Positions 8,974 to 56,456 of a stretch of 64,000 nucleotides of DNA are shown piece by piece. The position numbers were made by a program, and so were the translations under genes. This stretch comes from Escherichia coli (GTDB lineage Bacteria; Pseudomonadota; Gammaproteobacteria; Enterobacterales; Enterobacteriaceae): assembly GCF_044324875.1 (NCBI RefSeq), contig NZ_CP172185.1; one strand, given 5' to 3'. The notes under the pieces were generated by a model, which worked only from the letters and a program-made list of their open reading frames with translations, had not been told where the DNA came from and ran no database searches. How positions within the stretch are numbered: position 1 is the first letter of the stretch; each line of letters begins with the position of its first letter.

Positions 8974-10158
8974 TTAATTCAACCGTTCAATCACCATCGC
9001 AATTCCCTGGCCGCCACCAATGCACAGTGTTGCCAGCCCCAGCGTTTTATCGCGTGCCTGCATGGCATGTAATAGTGTGACCAGAATACGAGCACCACTG
9101 GCACCGATAGGATGCCCGAGCGCGATGGCCCCGCCGTTGACATTCACTTTCTCAGAATCAAAGCCCAGGGTTTTCCCAACGGCAAGGAACTGTGCAGCAA
9201 ATGCTTCATTAGCCTCAATGAGATCAATATCCGCCAGTTGCAGCCCCGCCAGTTGTAACGCTTTTTGCGTGGCAGGTACTGGCCCCATACCCATCAATGC
9301 GGGGGGCACGCCACCGCTGGCATAACTTTTAATGCGAGCCAGGGGGGTAAGGCCTGCTGCCAGCGCCGCAGATTCTTCCATAATCACCAGAGCGGCAGCA
9401 CCGTCGTTAATACCAGACGCGTTCCCGGCGGTGACTGTTCCTGCTTTATCGAAGGCCGGGCGCAACGCGCCTAACGCTTCAGTCGTAGAATCCGCTTTCG
9501 GGAATTCGTCTTGACTGAAGACGAAGGTTTTCTTCCGAGTGACAACATTTACCGGGACGATTTCGGCTGTAAAAGCACCGGACTCAATTGCGGCTGCCGC
9601 TTTACGCTGTGAATGTAGCGCCAGTTCATCCTGCATTTCTCGGGTAATTCCGTACTCTTTGGCCACGTTCTCGGCGGTAATCCCCATATGATAACCATGG
9701 GTGGCGCACATCAGACCATCGCGCAGGATTACGTCATAAACCTGTCCGTCTCCAAGACGATAACCAGAGCGTGCTTTTGCATCGAGTAAGTAGGGCGCTA
9801 AACTCATATTTTCCATACCCCCCGCCACAATGCTTTGCGCCTGACCTGCCTGAATTGCCTGGGCGGCAAGCGCCACACTTTTAAGACCCGAACCACACAC
9901 TTTATTGACCGTGAATCCGCACACCGTTTCTGCCAGCCCGCTTTTTAACAGTGCCTGACGTGCCGGATTTTGCCCCAACCCGGCTTGCAACACGTTACCC
10001 ATAATCACTTCATCAATGTGTAGTGAATCGATTTTTGCACGTTCAATGGCGGCTTTAATTACTGTCGCCCCCAGGTCGATGGCGCTGGTGGAAGCGAGTG
10101 AACCGTTAAAACTACCGATAGCAGTACGTACCGCACTGACGATGACACAATTTTTCAT
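8974..10158 (-). CDS. atoB: Acetyl-CoA acetyltransferase (thiolase II)
   Basis: 394 aa; thiolase motifs NKVCGSGLK (active Cys) and C-terminal [14 protein letters not shown]. Confidence 0.95.
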
Positions 10159-10188: not shown

Positions 10189-11511
10189 TCAGAACAGCGT
10201 TAAACCAATGACGAAAATGACGCCGGAGAAGAGCAGGGCAGTGATGCAATAGCCCATGATGTCGCGGACACCGAGTCCGGCGATTGCCAGTGCTGGCAGC
10301 GCCCAGAATGGTTGTGCCATGTTCATCCATTGCTCGCCGTAGGCGATCGCCATTACCGATTTACCGAGATCAGCGCCCAGCGCCTGGGCTGCGGGTATCA
10401 CGAAAGGTCCCTGAATAACCCAGTGACCGCCGCCAGACGGAACGGCGAAGTTAATCAGTGCAGAACTAAAAAAGGTCATTACCGGGAAGGTGTCTTTGTT
10501 CGCAACATTGATGAAGAATTCGGTAATGAGTCCGCCCAGACCGGAATGCTCCATCATCAGTTGGATCCCAGCGTAGAAGGGGAATTGCACCAGAATACCG
10601 GCAGTACTGCGTGCTGCCGCGCTGATAGCACGCATATAAGCCATTGGCGTTTTATGTAGCAGCAGACCCGCAATCATAAACATCAGGTTGACGGTATTGA
10701 TGGTGATGTTGAAGCCATGTTCGCTGAAGTACATCGCAAGGTAAGCGATACCGAGTGCGCCGATGATCAACGTCAGAATGCGGCTTTCTTCCAGTCGCTC
10801 GGATGGTGGGGCATCTTTCGGTAGCTGCTTTTGGAAATCAGCCTCTTCCATGAGTAGTTTCGGATCGATACTCACCACGTCAGACGGTTTTGGCATCATC
10901 ATGCGGGTGATAAATGGCATCACCACAATCAACGCCACAGTGATGAAAATGTTAAAACCACTGAACAGAGTATCGCCCACCGGGATCAGCCCGGCGATAT
11001 GCTCAACCGGGTTGCCCGGTGTTGCAGCCAACAGAGGCATTGAGCCAGAGAAACCGCCACCCCAGGTGAGAAAACCAATGTAGGCGCAGGCAATGAGCAA
11101 CGGATAATCAGAACCGGGTACTCGGCGGGCGACTTCACGGGCAAACATTGCGCCGACAACCAAACCAAATCCCCAGTTGATGACACAAGCGACTGAACCG
11201 AAGAAAGTAACCAGCATGACGCCCTGTACGGGCGTCTTTGCGGCGGAGGCGGCAGTACGCAGCAAACTTTTTACCGGAGCAGAGCTGGCAAGGGCATGAC
11301 CGGTAACGATGATAAGTGCCATCTGCATACCAAACGCCAGCAAGTTCCAGAAACCGTCACCCCACATTTTCACCATGCTGATCGGCGTTTGTGGTGTTAA
11401 CCAAAGCGCGATCACGAAAGTTAGCAATGTCAGCAACATGGCAAAGATCAGTGGATCGGGAAGCCACCGGCTGACAAAACGCGTCATAAAACGCGATATG
11501 CGACCAATCAT
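10189..11511 (-). CDS. atoE: Short-chain fatty acid transporter
   Basis: 440 aa polytopic membrane protein between atoA and atoB. Confidence 0.9.
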   Translation of the reverse strand: MIGRISRFMTRFVSRWLPDPLIFAMLLTLLTFVIALWLTPQTPISMVKMWGDGFWNLLAFGMQMALIIVTGHALASSAPVKSLLRTAASAAKTPVQGVMLVTFFGSVACVINWGFGLVVGAMFAREVARRVPGSDYPLLIACAYIGFLTWGGGFSGSMPLLAATPGNPVEHIAGLIPVGDTLFSGFNIFITVALIVVMPFITRMMMPKPSDVVSIDPKLLMEEADFQKQLPKDAPPSERLEESRILTLIIGALGIAYLAMYFSEHGFNITINTVNLMFMIAGLLLHKTPMAYMRAISAAARSTAGILVQFPFYAGIQLMMEHSGLGGLITEFFINVANKDTFPVMTFFSSALINFAVPSGGGHWVIQGPFVIPAAQALGADLGKSVMAIAYGEQWMNMAQPFWALPALAIAGLGVRDIMGYCITALLFSGVIFVIGLTLF

Positions 11512-12158
11512 AAATCACCCCGTTGCGTATTCAGATCGGCGGCAACTTCAAACCGAGCTTCTGTTTTGGCACACACGGTGGCTAAATCACACCCGTCGGC
11601 AATTTCGGTGAGCCACATTTTGCCGTCAATAAAACGAAAGACAGCCAGTTCAGTAACCAGCATATGCACCGCATGTTGCGCAGTGAGTGGCATGGTGCAG
11701 CGGCGCAAAATTTTTGCTGAACCATCTTTGGCACAATGTTCCATGGCGATGATCACTTTGCGCGACCCGGTCACCAGATCCATCGCGCCACCCATACCGG
11801 GCACCATTTTCCCAGGCACTACCCAGTTCGCGAGGTTGGCTTCTTCGTCTACCTGCAAACCGCCGAGCACGCAGGCATCAATATGACCGCCGCGGATTAG
11901 CGCAAATGACATGGCGCTATCAAACATGGCTGCACCGGGTAAAACACCGCACGGTTGTCCGCCAGCGTTCACCAGATCTGGATGCGCTGTCGTGACCGGG
12001 CCTAAACCGAGGAAGCCGTTTTCCGATTGCAGAGTGATATGAATACCCTCCGGTAAATAATTGGCGACCATTGTGGGTAAACCGATCCCTAAGTTAACGA
12101 TGTCACCATCACGAAGCTCTTGCGCCACACGGCGCGCAATACGTTGTTTCGCATCCAT
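11508..12158 (-). CDS. atoA: Acetate/acetoacetate CoA-transferase beta subunit
   Basis: 216 aa; start overlaps atoD stop by 1 nt (TAATG); 4-bp overlap with atoE. Confidence 0.93.
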   Translation of the reverse strand: MDAKQRIARRVAQELRDGDIVNLGIGLPTMVANYLPEGIHITLQSENGFLGLGPVTTAHPDLVNAGGQPCGVLPGAAMFDSAMSFALIRGGHIDACVLGGLQVDEEANLANWVVPGKMVPGMGGAMDLVTGSRKVIIAMEHCAKDGSAKILRRCTMPLTAQHAVHMLVTELAVFRFIDGKMWLTEIADGCDLATVCAKTEARFEVAADLNTQRGDL

Positions 12159-12820
12159 TATTTGCTCTCCTGTGAAACGATGATGTGGTCGATAACGGCA
12201 CCAGGGGTGACAATATGGTCAGGTTGCAGCTCGCCGATTTCGACCAGTTCATCTGGCTCTACCAGCGTGATATCAGCCGCAAGGGCTATCAGGGGGTTAA
12301 AGTTGCGGGCGCTAAGGTGATAGGTCAGGTTGCCAAGTGTGTCGCAACGATGAGCGCGAATTAGCGCCAGGTCGGCGCGCAGTGGGCGTTCGAGCAGCCA
12401 GGTTTTACCGTCGAGTGTCAGTGTCTGTTTGCCTTCCTCTACGACGGTGCCGACACCCGTTGGGGTGAGAAAACCACCAAGTCCAGCTCCACCACAGCGA
12501 ATTTGCTCGATTAGCGTACCTTGCGGCACCAGAACGACGTCCATCTCACCAGATATCATGCGCCGACCTGTTTCCGGGTTGGTGCCGATATGTGAAGCAA
12601 TCACTTTGCGGACTCGACCATTGACGATGAGCGGACCGATGCCAGTATCAACAAACGCGGTATCATTGGCTATCAATGTCAGGTCGCGAACACCAGATTC
12701 CAGTAATGCTTCAACCAGGCGGGATGGAGTGCCAATCCCCATAAATCCGCCCACCATGATGGTCATGCCGTCACGAAAGAAGCCGGTGGCATCTTGTAAT
12801 GTCATCAATTTTGTTTTCAT
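12158..12820 (-). CDS. atoD: Acetate/acetoacetate CoA-transferase alpha subunit
   Basis: 220 aa; first gene downstream of a sigma54-type promoter. Confidence 0.93.
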
Positions 12821-12865
12821 TTTTTATCCCTCTTGCATACACCGTTGTGGGTACAGTCAGGGAAT

Positions 12866-12881
12866 AGCAAGGGGAGTGCCA
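12866..12881 (-). promoter_or_regulatory. Sigma54 (-24/-12) promoter of atoDAEB
   Basis: Reverse complement reads TGGCAC-TCCCC-TTGCT (GG-N10-GC), about 45-60 bp upstream of the atoD start. Confidence 0.8.
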
Positions 12882-12964
12882 GAATGAGATTACTGGATTT
12901 TGTTATTTAACTAATTGAATATGAAGGGATAAATTGGATGGGGATTTATAAGGAGAATGAGCGG

Positions 12965-13003
12965 CTATGCAGAAAATTGCGCACTGTGCAAATTTCTGCA
13001 TAG
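12965..13003. promoter_or_regulatory. AtoC enhancer-binding palindrome upstream of the atoD promoter
   Basis: Near-perfect inverted repeat ctatgcagaaaattgcgca / tgcaaatttctgcatag, roughly 90-140 bp upstream of the sigma54 element. Confidence 0.7.
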
Positions 13004-13015
13004 CAAGTTTTAGCG

Positions 13016-14401
13016 TTATACATCCGCCGGATCGATACCGTATTCCTGGAGTTTATACATCAATGCACGGCGACTGATGCCCAGCATTAAAGCAGTGCGG
13101 GTTCGGTTTCCTTCTTGTTGTTCCAGCACTTCCATAATGATGCGTTTTTCGACGCGTTTAATTTCCTCTTTTAAATTACGCTCTCCGACAGGGGATGTTT
13201 TTACCTCGCCAGCATTACTGACTGGCTGACGAATCTGCGGCGGAAGATCCTCAGAAAAAATGATCGGGCCTGAGTTCATCACGACGGCGCGTTCAATAAC
13301 GTTGGAAAGCTCTCGAATATTTCCCGGCCATGACCAGGCGGTAAGCAGTGACATTGCCATCGGATCGATGTCGATAATATCGCGCTGATTCTCACTACTG
13401 AATTTTTGCAAAAAGTGATTAGCTAACAGGGAAATATCTTCCCGGCGATCGCGCAGAGGCGGCAGTATTAAATGAATAACGTTAAGGCGATAAAAGAGAT
13501 CTTCACGGAAGGTGCCTTCTTTCACCATTGCCTGCAAGTCGCGGTTGGTGGCAGCAATGATGCGGATATCAACTTTTATGGTCTGATGGCCGCCAATCCG
13601 TTCAAATTCCCGTTCCTGCAGAATGCGTAGTAATTTGGCTTGCAGTACGAGCGGCATTTCGCCAATTTCGTCGAGGAGCAGAGTACCTTCGTTGGCACGT
13701 TCAAATAATCCCTGACGCAAGGTTTGTGCACCAGTAAATGCCCCTTTTTCATGACCAAACAGTTCACTTTCGAGCAACGATTCCGGCAGCGCCGCGCAGT
13801 TGACTTTAATGAACGGCCCCTTTGCCCGCCGCGAATTGTAGTGAATCGCTCTGGCAATCAACTCTTTCCCGGTGCCGCTTTCACCGCTAATCAAGACGCT
13901 GGCCTGAGAAAGGGCAATTTTGGCGGTGTCTTTGCAGATATCCATCATCGCCGGGCTGTTGGTGAGAATGTGCCCCCATTGCCAGCTGGTGCTCAGTGCC
14001 TGGTGCAGATGACGGATCTCTTTTTTCATTGACTGGAGTTGTAAAGCGCGCTGAACGATTAAATTCAACTCATCGAGATCAAACGGTTTGATAACATAGT
14101 CGAAGGCCCCGCAGCGTAGCGCTTCGACGGCGGTTTCCACTTCAGCATAGGCCGTCATCAGAATAACGGGGGTCCGTGTCTCATGGCTGCGCATCTCCTT
14201 GAGTGCCTTGATGCCGTCCATCTCTGGCATGCGGATATCCATCAACACCACGTCAGGGTGAATATCAGCAAACAGGTGTAATGCTGTGCGTCCGTTGTTC
14301 GCACAATGTGTTTCGAAACCTTGTAGTGCAAAAGCGGTGCTCAGCATACGGCGAACATTATCTTCATCATCCACAATAAGGATGCGATTAATAGCAGTCA
14401 T
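13016..14401 (-). CDS. atoC: Sigma54-dependent response regulator AtoC
   Basis: 461 aa; receiver domain (IVDDEDNVRRM…D), AAA+ Walker A GESGTGKE, GAFTGA motif, C-terminal HTH; 4-bp overlap with atoS. Confidence 0.95.
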   Translation of the reverse strand: MTAINRILIVDDEDNVRRMLSTAFALQGFETHCANNGRTALHLFADIHPDVVLMDIRMPEMDGIKALKEMRSHETRTPVILMTAYAEVETAVEALRCGAFDYVIKPFDLDELNLIVQRALQLQSMKKEIRHLHQALSTSWQWGHILTNSPAMMDICKDTAKIALSQASVLISGESGTGKELIARAIHYNSRRAKGPFIKVNCAALPESLLESELFGHEKGAFTGAQTLRQGLFERANEGTLLLDEIGEMPLVLQAKLLRILQEREFERIGGHQTIKVDIRIIAATNRDLQAMVKEGTFREDLFYRLNVIHLILPPLRDRREDISLLANHFLQKFSSENQRDIIDIDPMAMSLLTAWSWPGNIRELSNVIERAVVMNSGPIIFSEDLPPQIRQPVSNAGEVKTSPVGERNLKEEIKRVEKRIIMEVLEQQEGNRTRTALMLGISRRALMYKLQEYGIDPADV

Positions 14402-16224
14402 ACAGTCTGATTTCCCTGCGGGTTGATCGGTAAAATAAGCGTGAAGGTTGCGCCGTAGCCCGGCAAACTGGCGACGCGAATATCACCCTGATGGGCATTA
14501 ATGATGCGTTGACTTAACGCCAGACCAAGCCCGGTTCCTGAGGCTTTGGTGGTGAAAAAGGGATCGAAGATCTTTTTTTGCAGCGAGAGATCAATGCCAC
14601 AGCCGTTGTCCTCTATCGAAATGGCCTGTTGTGAGTCGCTGTACTGCCAGGTTCGAATGCGAATTTTCCCTCGTGCACTGATAGCCTGGACGGCATTGAT
14701 CAGGATATTCAGTAGTACCTGTTTGAGCAGTTCACGATCGGCGTTAATCGGGCTTAATTCATTATCCAGTTCGCTTATGAAGTCGATCCGCGCTTGTACG
14801 CCAGCGGTTTGTACCAGTACCAGAGTTTCTTCAACCAATGCATTGAGGCTGACTTGTTGCCATTGACTGTGGCGTGGACGTGAAAATTCGAGCAATTGCT
14901 GAATAACTTTGTTAATTGAATCGATTTCTTTGAGTACTACGGACAGATATTCCTGATGTATTGGGTCACCGGTTTGTTGGCGCAAGATCTGTACATAACC
15001 ACGAATAGCCGTTAGCGGATTACGTACTTCATGCGCGACGCCAGCCATCAGCTCACCCAGTGTGGCGAGGCGTTCTGCTTGCGCCATGCGGCGCTGGGTT
15101 TCTTTGCGGGCAGTTAAATCAGAGAAAATCACCAAAGCACCTATCATTTCACCATGCGTGTTATGAATACGACTGGTAGTGACACTGAGTTCAATGGTGC
15201 GGTCACGGCCTGGAAAACTGATCTCCAGCGCTACATGTTCGGTGCCATGTTCCAGCGTATCCAGTACTGGACTGTAGAACTGAGTATTGTCGAACAACAT
15301 GGAGTAAGGCTGCCCTACCAGTTCATGACGTTGATAGCCAGTGATGACTTCTGCTGCCGGGTTCATGGTGGTTACATCACCCTGGCGGTCAATGGCAATG
15401 ACGCCATCGGCAGCGTTTTCAATAATCAGATCGTTAAGTGTCCGCGTTTCACGCAGTGCCTGGGCGAGGTTGTTAACACTCTGACTGATTTGCCCCATTT
15501 CACCGGGCAATTGTGGTAATCGAGTGGGAATATTTTGCGCCAGAGTCGAGAGGCCATCGGTGATGATATCAATATTGGCGCTCAGGCGACGGGAGAAAAG
15601 GACAATCAACAGCAGGCTTATCAGCAAACCGGCGGTGAGCACAATGATAATCCTCACATCCATTTTCCAGGCCTGGCGGCGAATATCTTCGGTTAATTCA
15701 TTGGCCCAGATATAGCCGAGGATTTCACCATTACGCTCAATGGGGATCATTGAATTCAAAATATCGCCGCGCACCTGCCTGCCTGAATAAACCAAAGGGG
15801 TATTTGTACGCATGACTTCGCGACCAGGGTGATCTGCGGCAATGGTAACGCCGACATTATTCTGATATAGCGCTGAAGGCGCGTAGGTGATTATCGCATC
15901 CAGCGTTTTGTTGTAATAACTAGCGCCGATGCCAGGGAAGGCGTGAGTGATATTTTCGGTAATGGGGGCAAGTTCTGCATTTAATGCGCGGATACGCTCC
16001 TCACGTGGTAAGTCGATGTAGAGATCATAGCGATCGCCTAGTGCCTGATTAAGCAGGTTGACCACGGCAGAAAGTTTTTTCTCTTTTTCAGATAAGACTG
16101 CTGAACGTCCTTCCGTTTCTACGATATAACCAATAGTAAGCGTTGGGACAATGACCATCAGGATTGCCATCAGGATCATTTGATTGCGTAAGCGGCGTGG
16201 ATAAATCCACTTCATATAATGCAT
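14398..16224 (-). CDS. atoS: Sensor histidine kinase AtoS
   Basis: H-box AHEVRNPL, transmembrane N-terminus, PAS region; start placed at MHYMKWIYPRR (ORF-track 16236 start is 4 codons upstream). Confidence 0.9.
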   Translation of the reverse strand: MHYMKWIYPRRLRNQMILMAILMVIVPTLTIGYIVETEGRSAVLSEKEKKLSAVVNLLNQALGDRYDLYIDLPREERIRALNAELAPITENITHAFPGIGASYYNKTLDAIITYAPSALYQNNVGVTIAADHPGREVMRTNTPLVYSGRQVRGDILNSMIPIERNGEILGYIWANELTEDIRRQAWKMDVRIIIVLTAGLLISLLLIVLFSRRLSANIDIITDGLSTLAQNIPTRLPQLPGEMGQISQSVNNLAQALRETRTLNDLIIENAADGVIAIDRQGDVTTMNPAAEVITGYQRHELVGQPYSMLFDNTQFYSPVLDTLEHGTEHVALEISFPGRDRTIELSVTTSRIHNTHGEMIGALVIFSDLTARKETQRRMAQAERLATLGELMAGVAHEVRNPLTAIRGYVQILRQQTGDPIHQEYLSVVLKEIDSINKVIQQLLEFSRPRHSQWQQVSLNALVEETLVLVQTAGVQARIDFISELDNELSPINADRELLKQVLLNILINAVQAISARGKIRIRTWQYSDSQQAISIEDNGCGIDLSLQKKIFDPFFTTKASGTGLGLALSQRIINAHQGDIRVASLPGYGATFTLILPINPQGNQTV

Positions 16225-16390: not shown

Positions 16391-19228
16391 TTGAAATACC
16401 TTGCTTCTTTTCGTACAACCCTGAAAGCCTCGCGCTACATGTTCAGAGCATTGGCGTTAGTGCTCTGGCTGTTGATTGCTTTTTCATCCGTTTTTTACAT
16501 CGTTAATGCGTTACATCAGCGAGAATCGGAAATTCGTCAGGAATTTAATCTGAGTTCCGATCAGGCTCAGCGCTTTATTCAACGCACCTCTGATGTGATG
16601 AAAGAGCTGAAGTACATCGCCGAAAATCGCTTATCGGCAGAAAACGGTGTGCTTTCCCCGCGTGGACGAGAAACGCAGGCGGATGTGCCTGCGTTTGAAC
16701 CGCTGTTTGCCGACTCCGATTGTTCCGCAATGAGTAACACCTGGCGAGGCTCTCTGGAGTCATTGGCGTGGTTTATGCGCTACTGGCGCGATAATTTCTC
16801 TGCAGCTTACGATCTCAACCGGGTATTTTTAATCGGCAGCGATAACCTCTGCATGGCCAATTTCGGTCTGCGTGATATGCCAGTGGAACGCGATACCGCG
16901 TTGAAAGCGTTGCATGAACGCATCAATAAATATCGAAATGCACCACAAGATGATAGCGGCAGTAACCTCTACTGGATCAGCGAAGGTCCGCGCCCTGGCG
17001 TCGGGTATTTTTACGCGTTGACGCCAGTTTATCTGGCGAACCGGTTGCAGGCGCTTTTGGGTGTCGAGCAGACCATCCGGATGGAGAACTTTTTCTTACC
17101 TGGTACGTTGCCGATGGGGGTTACCATTCTTGATGAAAATGGTCATACCCTGATTTCGCTTACCGGACCAGAAAGCAAAATTAAGGGCGATCCTCGCTGG
17201 ATGCAGGAACGCTCCTGGTTTGGCTATACGGAAGGGTTCCGGGAGCTGGTGCTGAAGAAAAATCTGCCACCCTCATCGCTAAGCATCGTGTATTCGGTGC
17301 CGGTTGATAAGGTGCTGGAACGCATTCGCATGTTGATCCTTAACGCAATTTTGCTGAATGTGCTTGCCGGAGCTGCATTGTTTACTCTCGCGCGGATGTA
17401 CGAGCGGCGTATTTTCATTCCGGCGGAAAGCGACGCCTTGCGACTGGAAGAACATGAGCAGTTTAATCGCAAGATTGTCGCCTCCGCGCCAGTGGGTATC
17501 TGCATTTTGCGTACCGCTGATGGCGTCAATATTTTAAGTAACGAACTGGCGCATACCTATCTCAATATGCTTACGCATGAGGATCGCCAACGACTGACGC
17601 AAATTATCTGTGGGCAGCAGGTCAATTTTGTTGATGTCCTGACCAGCAACAATACCAATCTGCAAATCAGCTTCGTCCATTCGCGCTATCGTAATGAAAA
17701 CGTGGCCATTTGTGTGCTGGTGGATGTTTCTTCGCGCGTGAAGATGGAAGAGTCGTTGCAGGAGATGGCACAAGCAGCGGAACAGGCGAGCCAGTCAAAA
17801 TCGATGTTCCTTGCCACCGTCAGTCATGAGCTGCGAACGCCGCTGTATGGCATTATCGGTAACCTGGATCTGTTGCAAACCAAAGAGTTACCGAAAGGCG
17901 TCGATCGTCTGGTGACGGCAATGAACAACTCTTCCAGCCTGTTGTTGAAAATTATCAGCGATATTCTCGATTTCTCGAAGATTGAATCGGAACAGTTGAA
18001 GATCGAACCGCGTGAGTTTTCACCGCGTGAAGTGATGAACCACATCACCGCCAACTATTTACCGCTGGTGGTACGCAAGCAGTTAGGCTTGTACTGCTTT
18101 ATTGAACCGGATGTGCCAGTGGCCTTAAATGGCGACCCGATGCGTTTACAGCAGGTCATCTCCAACCTGTTGAGTAACGCCATAAAATTCACCGATACCG
18201 GCTGTATAGTTTTGCATGTTCGCACTGATGGCGATTATCTCTCTATCCGTGTTCGCGATACCGGCGTGGGGATTCCGGCGAAAGAAGTGGTGCGCTTGTT
18301 TGATCCCTTCTTCCAGGTCGGAACGGGCGTACAGCGTAACTTCCAGGGGACCGGTCTGGGTCTGGCGATTTGTGAAAAACTGATCAGCATGATGGACGGC
18401 GATATCTCGGTAGATTCAGAACCGGGAATGGGTAGCCAGTTTACCGTGCGTATTCCGTTGTACGGCGCTCAGTACCCGCAGAAAAAAGGCGTGGAAGGGT
18501 TGAGTGGTAAACGCTGCTGGCTGGCGGTCCGCAATGCGTCGCTCTGTCAGTTCCTGGAAACCAGTTTGCAGCGCAGCGGCATCGTCGTTACAACATACGA
18601 AGGGCAGGAACCGACTCCCGAAGATGTGTTAATCACTGACGAGGTAGTGAGCAAAAAATGGCAGGGTAGAGCGGTAGTGACCTTCTGTCGTCGCCATATT
18701 GGTATTCCGCTGGAGAAAGCGCCAGGAGAGTGGGTACACAGTGTGGCTGCTCCGCATGAGCTACCGGCATTGTTGGCGCGTATTTATTTGATCGAGATGG
18801 AGAGCGACGATCCTGCTAACGCTCTGCCGTCGACGGACAAAGCGGTCAGCGATAATGACGATATGATGATTCTGGTCGTGGATGATCATCCGATTAACCG
18901 ACGTCTGCTGGCAGATCAGTTGGGATCGTTGGGCTATCAATGTAAAACCGCGAATGATGGCGTCGATGCGCTTAATGTACTTAGCAAGAATCATATTGAT
19001 ATCGTGCTTAGCGACGTCAACATGCCAAATATGGATGGTTACCGCTTGACGCAACGCATTCGTCAGTTGGGACTGACGTTGCCGGTAATCGGAGTAACTG
19101 CTAATGCGTTGGCTGAAGAGAAGCAGCGGTGTCTGGAGTCTGGTATGGACAGCTGCCTGTCGAAGCCGGTAACGCTGGATGTGATAAAACAGACGCTAAC
19201 GGTATATGCCGAGAGGGTCAGGAAATCG

Positions 19229-19240
<12 letters not shown>
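16391..19240 (+). CDS. rcsC: Hybrid sensor kinase RcsC
   Basis: 949 aa; H-box VSHELRTPL, ATP-binding G-boxes, C-terminal receiver (ILVVDDHPINRRL…D). Confidence 0.95.
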
Positions 19241-19434
<194 letters not shown>

Positions 19435-23090: not shown

Positions 23091-23183
23091 AAAAAAAACC
23101 GGATGCGAGGCATCCGGTTGAAATAGGGGTAAACAGACATTCAGAAATGAATGACGGTAATAAATAAAGTTAATGATGATAGC
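23091..23183 (-). ncRNA. micF: MicF antisense sRNA
   Basis: Reverse complement reads GCTATCATCATTAACTTTATTTATTACCGTCATTCATTTCTGAATGTCTGTTTACCCCTATTTCAACCGGATGCCTCGCATCCGGTTTTTTTT, ending in a hairpin plus T-run; divergent from ompC. Confidence 0.9.
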
Positions 23184-23338
23184 GGGAGTTATTCTAGTTG
23201 CGAGTGAAGGTTTTGTTTTGACATTCAGTGCTGTCAAATACTTAAGAATAAGTTATTGATTTTAACCTTGAATTATTATTGCTTGATGTTAGGTGCTTAT
23301 TTCGCCATTCCGCAATAATCTTAAAAAGTTCCCTTCTA

Positions 23339-29524: not shown

Positions 29525-31183
<1,659 letters not shown>

Positions 31184-31185
31184 TG

Positions 31186-31312
31186 ATGTGCCACATCCGG
31201 CATGGTATGCCGGATGTGGCGTATGCAGATAAGACGCGTCAGCGTCGCATCAGGCAACCGGCTCGGGCGTTAGATGTCGGATGCGGCGTGACCGCCTTAT
31301 CTGACCTACGGG
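31186..31312. repeat. Terminator-like palindrome plus REP element downstream of mqo
   Basis: Palindrome gccacatccggcatggtatgccggatgtggc followed by a REP-like unit (…gccttatctgacctacg). Confidence 0.7.
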
Positions 31313-56111: not shown

Positions 56112-56456
56112 GTGACTTCATTACAACTCTCAATCGTCCATCGACTGCCGCAGAACTATCGCTGGTCTGCTGGTTTCGCAGGTTCGAAGGTTGAACCGAT
56201 TCCGCAAAATGGACCGTGCGGTGACAACAGCCTGGTGGCGCTTAAATTGCTTAGCCCGGATGGTGATAATGCATGGTCGGTGATGTACAAACTAAGCCAG
56301 GCGTTAAGCGACATCGAAGTTCCATGCTCGGTGCTGGAGTGTGAAGGTGAGCCGTGCCTGTTTGTAAATCGCCAGGACGAGTTTGCAGCAACATGCCGAT
56401 TGAAAAATTTTGGTGTGGCAATTGCCGAACCCTTTTCAAACTACAATCCTTTTTAA
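56112..56456 (+). CDS. yejG: Uncharacterised protein YejG
   Basis: 114-aa ORF in the conserved position between bcr and yejF. Confidence 0.8.

Follow-up and report, generated by a model that had tools for sequence, protein, structure and literature searches.

The question raised by this locus is whether the spacer between atoC and atoD serves as an enhancer-dependent promoter of the atoDAEB operon or whether these genes are transcribed by another route, and what purpose the long palindrome within the spacer has. The analysis covered the window, meaning the whole 64-kb stretch of DNA, together with orthologous loci from other genomes. Its outcome is that the atoC-atoD spacer is almost certainly the enhancer-dependent promoter of atoDAEB. 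This identification draws on an exact and unique -24/-12 element, the best palindrome of the window, sites identical to those of K-12, conservation among orthologs, and an intact bacterial enhancer-binding protein (bEBP), AtoC. No finding of the analysis speaks against it.

Gene setting of the atoC-atoD spacer

The ato genes and both regulatory elements discussed below are encoded on the minus strand, in the following order:

14398-16224, minus strand: atoS, sensor histidine kinase of 608 aa (Pfam PAS, HisKA and HATPase_c)
13016-14401, minus strand: atoC, sigma-54 enhancer-binding response regulator of 461 aa (Pfam Response_reg, Sigma54_activat, AAA_lid_14 and HTH_8)
12158-12820, minus strand: atoD, acetate CoA-transferase alpha subunit of 220 aa, first gene of atoDAEB, with its ATG at 12820
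11508-12158, minus strand: atoA, open reading frame
10189-11511, minus strand: atoE, open reading frame
8974-10158, minus strand: atoB, open reading frame

The spacer between the atoC stop and the atoD start comprises exactly positions 12821-13015 (195 bp). Over 11.3 kb (rcsC-atoS-atoC-atoD-atoA-atoE-atoB-yfaP), the window aligns with MG1655 without gaps at 98.6% identity; judged by its sequence, the source of the window is an E. coli strain other than K-12. When a 451-bp query around the spacer was searched against 5426 complete E. coli genomes, matches of 90-100% identity were found in 3924 of them, and the features annotated beneath these matches in near-identical genomes (RefSeq annotation) are atoC and atoD. 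The gene identities, atoC upstream and atoD downstream, are thereby confirmed. As a separate observation, the spacer is absent from approximately 28% of complete E. coli genomes, and by implication so is the ato locus. In strain RM10466, the closest match, atoS has genes for a phosphoethanolamine transferase and an outer-membrane protein on its upstream side; its direct neighbour in the window is rcsC, as in K-12.

None of the six ato proteins departs from the K-12 length or contains an internal stop, and each differs from its K-12 counterpart by 0-6 residues (0-5 for the atoDAEB products, 2 for AtoC and 6 for AtoS), with Pfam matches among the atoDAEB products to CoA_trans, SCFA_trans and Thiolase. 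The functional motifs of AtoC are present, including D55, H73, Walker A (GESGTGKE173), GAFTGA220, Walker B (DEIG244) and a Fis-type HTH (ISRRALMYKL), and the H-box of AtoS (HEVRNP at residue 398) is intact. The original prediction had taken the cis elements as an indication that the pathway is intact. Such a conclusion does not follow from cis elements alone, and it was the separate check of the six genes that found them intact. Taken at the level of sequence, the ato regulon looks functional; its inducibility is something we infer, with rpoN, ihfA and ihfB lying outside the window. A plus-strand open reading frame at 12429-12887 (152 aa, TTG start), antisense to atoD and extending over the promoter, was treated as a mechanical ORF.

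The -24/-12 element and the AtoC palindrome

Within the spacer, TGGCACTCCCCTTGCT at 12881-12866 on the minus strand matches TGGCAC-N5-TTGCW exactly, as no other sequence in the 64-kb window does. The element precedes the atoD ATG by 46-61 nt and points toward atoD, in agreement with the earlier claim of a TGGCAC-N5-TTGCT element about 45-60 bp upstream of atoD, to which the minus strand can now be added. By dinucleotide-preserving shuffles, 0.14 exact matches would be expected per 64 kb on both strands, and about 2e-4 on one strand of the 195-bp spacer. The promoter element and the second regulatory element of the spacer are as follows:

12866-12882, minus strand: sigma-54 (RpoN) -24/-12 element CTGGCACTCCCCTTGCT, with GG at 12880-12879 and GC at 12868-12867, 10 bp apart
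12964-13004, no strand assigned: AtoC upstream activating sequence (UAS), a 41-bp palindrome (20+1+20) with arms at 12964-12983 and 12985-13004 and its centre at 12984

The 17-mer CTGGCACTCCCCTTGCT is identical to the K-12 sigma-54 ChIP-seq site OS21 (atoD), which is flagged as an experimentally confirmed EcoCyc promoter, is listed in Table 1 with a distance of 35 for atoD, and gave a modest ChIP signal in K-12 (FAT 5, PSSM 9.39; PMC4591121). In addition, the atoC/atoD spacer was selected in vitro by reconstituted RpoN holoenzyme, appearing as a gSELEX peak (PMC8743547). Immediately around the element, 1823 complete E. coli genomes share the sequence of the window exactly across 12821-12890, and 2099 depart from it by 1-3 bases. 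Position 12862, 4 nt downstream of the -12 element, is a C in the window, which is the state of most other genera, and a G in K-12.

A -24/-12 match could be coincidental, and atoDAEB could instead be expressed from a sigma-70 promoter within the spacer. The spacer is AT-rich, and weak sigma-70-like hexamers could escape a simple consensus scan such as the one used here, which covered 12600-13300 and detected nothing of the sigma-70 type on the ato strand. However, the -24/-12 element fits the consensus exactly, has no second exact match in the window and does not vary across genera; it is bound by sigma-54 in vivo in K-12 (PMC4591121), and the neighbouring regulator AtoC is a sigma-54-specific activator with a GAFTGA loop. 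A sigma-70 origin of the operon transcript is therefore considered extremely improbable, and the sigma-54 promoter is retained. Elsewhere in the window, allowing one mismatch adds a single sigma-54-like sequence, TGGCGCTTAAATTGCT at 56236-56251 on the plus strand. Located within overlapping ORFs, it was not accepted as a promoter because one-mismatch matches are no commoner than chance predicts (2 found against 3.8 expected).

The upstream element is the top-scoring 20+20 palindrome of the entire window. Its arms are complementary at 18 of 20 positions (90%) across a 1-nt spacer, a value reached by 1 of 5000 shuffles of the atoC-atoD spacer, and its core reads TTGCACA-G-TGCGCAA at 12977-12991. 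The palindrome occupies -184 to -144 relative to the atoD ATG, which leaves 83-123 bp to the 5' edge of the downstream -24 element, 98-138 bp to the 3' edge of the -12 element, and 110 bp between its centre and the promoter. The original prediction of a palindrome of about 39 bp situated 90-140 bp further upstream is thus upheld as to position, and its length is corrected to 41 bp. The second-best long palindrome of the window (31185-31225, 16/20) lies right after the stop of a 548-aa ORF (29537-31183, plus strand), has REP-like sequence behind it, and probably represents a terminator or REP hairpin.

Read on the ato strand, the two arms are GCTATGCAGAAATTTGCACA (13004-12985; -184 to -165) and GCTATGCAGAAAATTGCGCA (12983-12964; -163 to -144), which reproduce the published AtoC half-sites letter for letter and at the same offsets. 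Both half-sites are experimentally positive for in vivo AtoC binding, as verified by ChIP/EMSA (Pilalis et al., PMC3118216 Table 5). The passages of that paper that cite earlier work attribute the 40-bp inverted palindrome and the sigma-54 element to Matta et al. 2007 (J Bacteriol 189:6324) and refer to mutational work in which induction was reported to need both 20-bp arms. With half-sites and 17-mer both identical to experimental K-12 sites, the proposed architecture of enhancer-dependent activation by AtoC is well founded.

Comparison with other species points in the same direction. A scan for AtoD with one genome per species yielded 80 loci, among which 47 have atoS-atoC immediately upstream of atoDA(EB). 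These syntenic loci include members of Escherichia, Citrobacter, Edwardsiella, Raoultella, Atlantibacter, Serratia, Buttiauxella, Morganella, Leminorella, Yersinia and Hafnia, as well as three non-enterobacterial MAGs. In 40 of the 43 Enterobacterales syntenic loci, the best -24/-12 match agrees at 10-11 of the 11 bases that the consensus specifies, and its start lies 56-64 nt ahead of the ATG. The exceptions are Hafnia (9/11 at -61), Affinibrenneria (10/11 at -166, with an 846-bp spacer) and one Citrobacter locus (L036) whose ato genes are disrupted and which was left out of the -24/-12 scan. For the three non-enterobacterial loci, the scores are 8-10, at -64 to -140. Across an alignment of 19 diverse spacers from different genera and species, both CTGGCAY-N5-TTGC and the palindrome core TTGCRCA-N-TGYGCAA are invariant. 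The shorter core TGCRCA-N1-2-TGYGCA was found in 39/47 syntenic loci, and in the orthologous loci 103-146 bp separate the AtoC core from the downstream -24/-12 element.

Mirrored evolution of the palindrome arms

Beyond the invariant core, the arms of the palindrome have changed between genera while remaining symmetric. Among 26-32 distinct orthologous sites from atoC-atoD spacers, dyad symmetry reaches ±20 bp from the centre and ends at ±21-22, and mirrored changes on both arms were observed at 10 of the 20 pairs. The covariation score of 0.249 compares with 0.117±0.012 in shuffles (reached by 0 of 500) and 0.03-0.09 in slid controls. The mirrored arms of the different lineages are:

GCTATGCAG...CTGCATAGC: Escherichia and Citrobacter
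GCCAGGCAAAG...TTTTTGCCTGG(T): Atlantibacter, with one mismatch and one G·T
CTGAGAAGG...CCTTCTCA: Serratia and Symbiopectobacterium
CCTGACAAAAA...TTTTTGTCAGG: Buttiauxella

In these same taxa, no change is seen in the recognition helix of AtoC, LGISRRALMYKLQEY; variation is confined to the HTH helix that precedes it. Possible causes of the mirrored arms include recognition of shape or structure (cruciform or hairpin extrusion, or a 3' hairpin of atoSC), co-evolving contacts outside the recognition helix, and template switching, none of which was described for the AtoC site in the literature searched.

One way to account for such a pattern is that the palindrome also, or mainly, works as RNA, forming a hairpin that closes the atoSC mRNA at its 3' end and serves as a terminator or 3' stabiliser. 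The palindrome begins 11 nt past the atoC stop codon, its RNA folds at -27.6 kcal/mol (z -4.0), and both the covariation of the arms and the invariance of the recognition helix would suit a constraint on the transcript. Furthermore, Morganella, Leminorella, Enterobacillus and Yersinia are without the long palindrome and have a distinct hairpin that lies between atoC and their AtoC core; this lineage contrast, however, represents only one or two independent phylogenetic comparisons. Several further findings speak against an RNA role. An intrinsic terminator consists of a G+C-rich hairpin with an immediate U-tract, whereas the palindrome forms a long stable stem followed by CCGCUCAUUCUCC, with no U-run, and the minus-strand terminator scan makes no call there. 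An RNA stem should favour G·U pairs, yet non-Watson-Crick pairs on the sense strand are as often A·C as G·T (40 vs 34; outside the loop, 21 vs 23). The Term-seq supplements of PMC7815308 contain no entries for atoS, atoC or atoD and no 3' end near atoC, and AtoC binding to exactly this stretch of DNA is experimentally established (PMC3118216). An RNA hairpin function is accordingly regarded as improbable, and the palindrome continues to be read as the AtoC enhancer.

Two further observations concern terminators. In four Morganella loci (L040, L041, L043 and L044), the distinct hairpin counted above in favour of an RNA role is a canonical intrinsic terminator with a stem and a T-run, located at about -250 to -275 from atoD, between atoC and the AtoC core. 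In the window, two plus-strand terminator-like matches in 12600-13300 were dismissed, being near chance (2 vs 0.7 expected) and inside coding sequence.

With the RNA hairpin weakened, the remaining explanations for the mirrored arms lie at the DNA level, namely contacts, shape or symmetry, and template switching. It is conceivable, and here suggested only tentatively, that the two-fold symmetry of the AtoC enhancer is maintained for its own sake, with the outer arms, about 8-20 bp from the centre, mirrored in several lineages. Template switching at quasi-palindromes, a mutational route documented in E. coli, copies one arm onto the other as the DNA is replicated. It would make the mirrored arms a neutral by-product, with no functional need for symmetry beyond the core. 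Mirrored changes at positions that lack sequence conservation (12, 14 and 16-18 from the centre), mismatches free of an RNA-type strand bias and the invariant recognition helix are all compatible with such an origin. On the other side, the symmetry ends sharply at ±20-21 in most taxa, suggesting a functional boundary; both 20-bp arms are reported as necessary for induction in the work that PMC3118216 cites; and the first HTH helix varies between site classes, leaving protein-DNA co-evolution equally open. A purely mutational origin is thus a possibility to be held with some doubt. The mirrored arms pose a small question, which leaves the promoter assignment unchanged.

Mechanism, known counterparts and meaning

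The region between and downstream of the two regulatory elements contains further predicted signals:

12908-12920, minus strand: IHF-like site ATTCAATTAGTTA, one mismatch to WATCAANNNNTTR by consensus scan, between the UAS and the promoter
12855-12858, minus strand: predicted atoDAEB transcription start, with C12867 counted as -12
12838-12854, minus strand: candidate 5'-terminal mRNA hairpin GUACCC-ACAAC-GGUGUAU, covering the first ~17 nt of the predicted mRNA
12828-12832, minus strand: atoD Shine-Dalgarno sequence GAGGG, read from sequence, whose GG (12830-12829) is invariant in the 19-spacer alignment

In the linker between the UAS and the -24 element, well-conserved columns occur only at the CAA/TTR of ATTCAATTAGTTA (12916, 12909, 12908 and 12920). 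The 2007 work of Matta and colleagues is said to have found IHF dependence of the ato promoter and IHF-assisted looping, with which these conserved columns and the IHF-like match would fit. The site itself is predicted, and IHF would have a putative role at the ato promoter. As regards the start site, the published mapping, which reportedly placed the palindrome at -146 to -107, would put +1 at about 12857-12858. A start at about 12855 gives a 35-nt leader, in agreement with the distance of 35 for atoD (PMC4591121).

Only tentatively can a 5' hairpin be assigned to the atoD leader. In the window, the stem at 12838-12854 is weak (MFE -3.8 kcal/mol, z -0.26). A similar hairpin, formed by partly different sequences, appears in most orthologous leaders (mean z -1.6 for 22 leaders folded singly). 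RNAalifold predicted no consensus structure for the atoD leaders, and pair counting on a hand-drawn stem found covariation no higher than in shuffles. A search of Rfam over the whole window detected no family within the ato spacer. Other parts of the window do contain Rfam matches, including two naRNA4 (REP325/CssrE-type) repeat units at 19240-19430, above the gathering score and immediately downstream of rcsC (16391-19240, plus strand), the MicF sRNA gene (23091-23184, minus strand; 116.8 bits), a tRNA-Pro (GGG) gene (48061-48137, minus strand) and a ribosomal protein L25 leader (51853-51878, minus strand).

Under the proposed mechanism, sigma-54 RNA polymerase would bind the -24/-12 element (12882-12866, minus strand) as a closed complex. 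Acetoacetate sensed by AtoS would lead to phosphorylation of AtoC at D55, and phosphorylated AtoC would then occupy the 41-bp palindrome at 12964-13004, centred 110 bp upstream, as a two-fold symmetric oligomer. Contact between AtoC and the polymerase would be made by DNA looping, probably aided by an IHF-induced bend at the AT-rich 12908-12920, and ATP hydrolysis by AtoC together with its GAFTGA loop would open the promoter, and transcription would begin some 35-38 nt ahead of the ATG of atoD. That AtoC binds, that sigma-54 occupies the promoter and that acetoacetate induces it is taken from the literature; we infer the exact start site and function in the window's strain. In reporter experiments, Pato-GFP was switched on by acetoacetate, and deletion of atoS, atoC or atoSC left it silent (PMC7618054).

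The closest counterpart is K-12 Pato itself, which shares the locus and gene order (rcsC / atoS-atoC-atoD-atoA-atoE-atoB / yfaP), the 195-bp spacer, the AtoC half-sites at identical distances from the ATG and the 17-nt sigma-54 motif. Within the spacer, the differences amount to five single bases (13014, 13012, 12901, 12893 and 12862), all outside the palindrome and the -24/-12 element. More distantly, the arrangement resembles NtrC/glnAp2-type promoters with an IHF-assisted loop (nifH, Pu and glnHp2), with which it shares a bEBP with receiver, AAA+ (GAFTGA) and Fis-type HTH domains that binds a dyad-symmetric, TGCAC-containing site some 110 bp upstream of a -24/-12 promoter. At ato, an AT-rich candidate IHF site lies in between. 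The AtoC site, however, is a single 41-bp palindrome with a tight core (TGCAC-N3-GYGCA), whereas NtrC uses two separate 17-bp dimer sites (TGCACC-N5-GGTGCA), and IHF binding at ato is a prediction.

The feature is therefore the already characterised sigma-54 promoter of atoDAEB with its AtoC enhancer, a known and ordinary element. It is a textbook enhancer-dependent promoter that was mapped biochemically in 2007, recovered by sigma-54 ChIP-seq in 2015 and is already in use as an acetoacetate biosensor part. For annotation, its value is that this strain has a complete ato regulon with wild-type-like control elements, and the comparison across genera delimits the AtoC recognition core more cleanly, as TGCRCA-N-TGYGCA.
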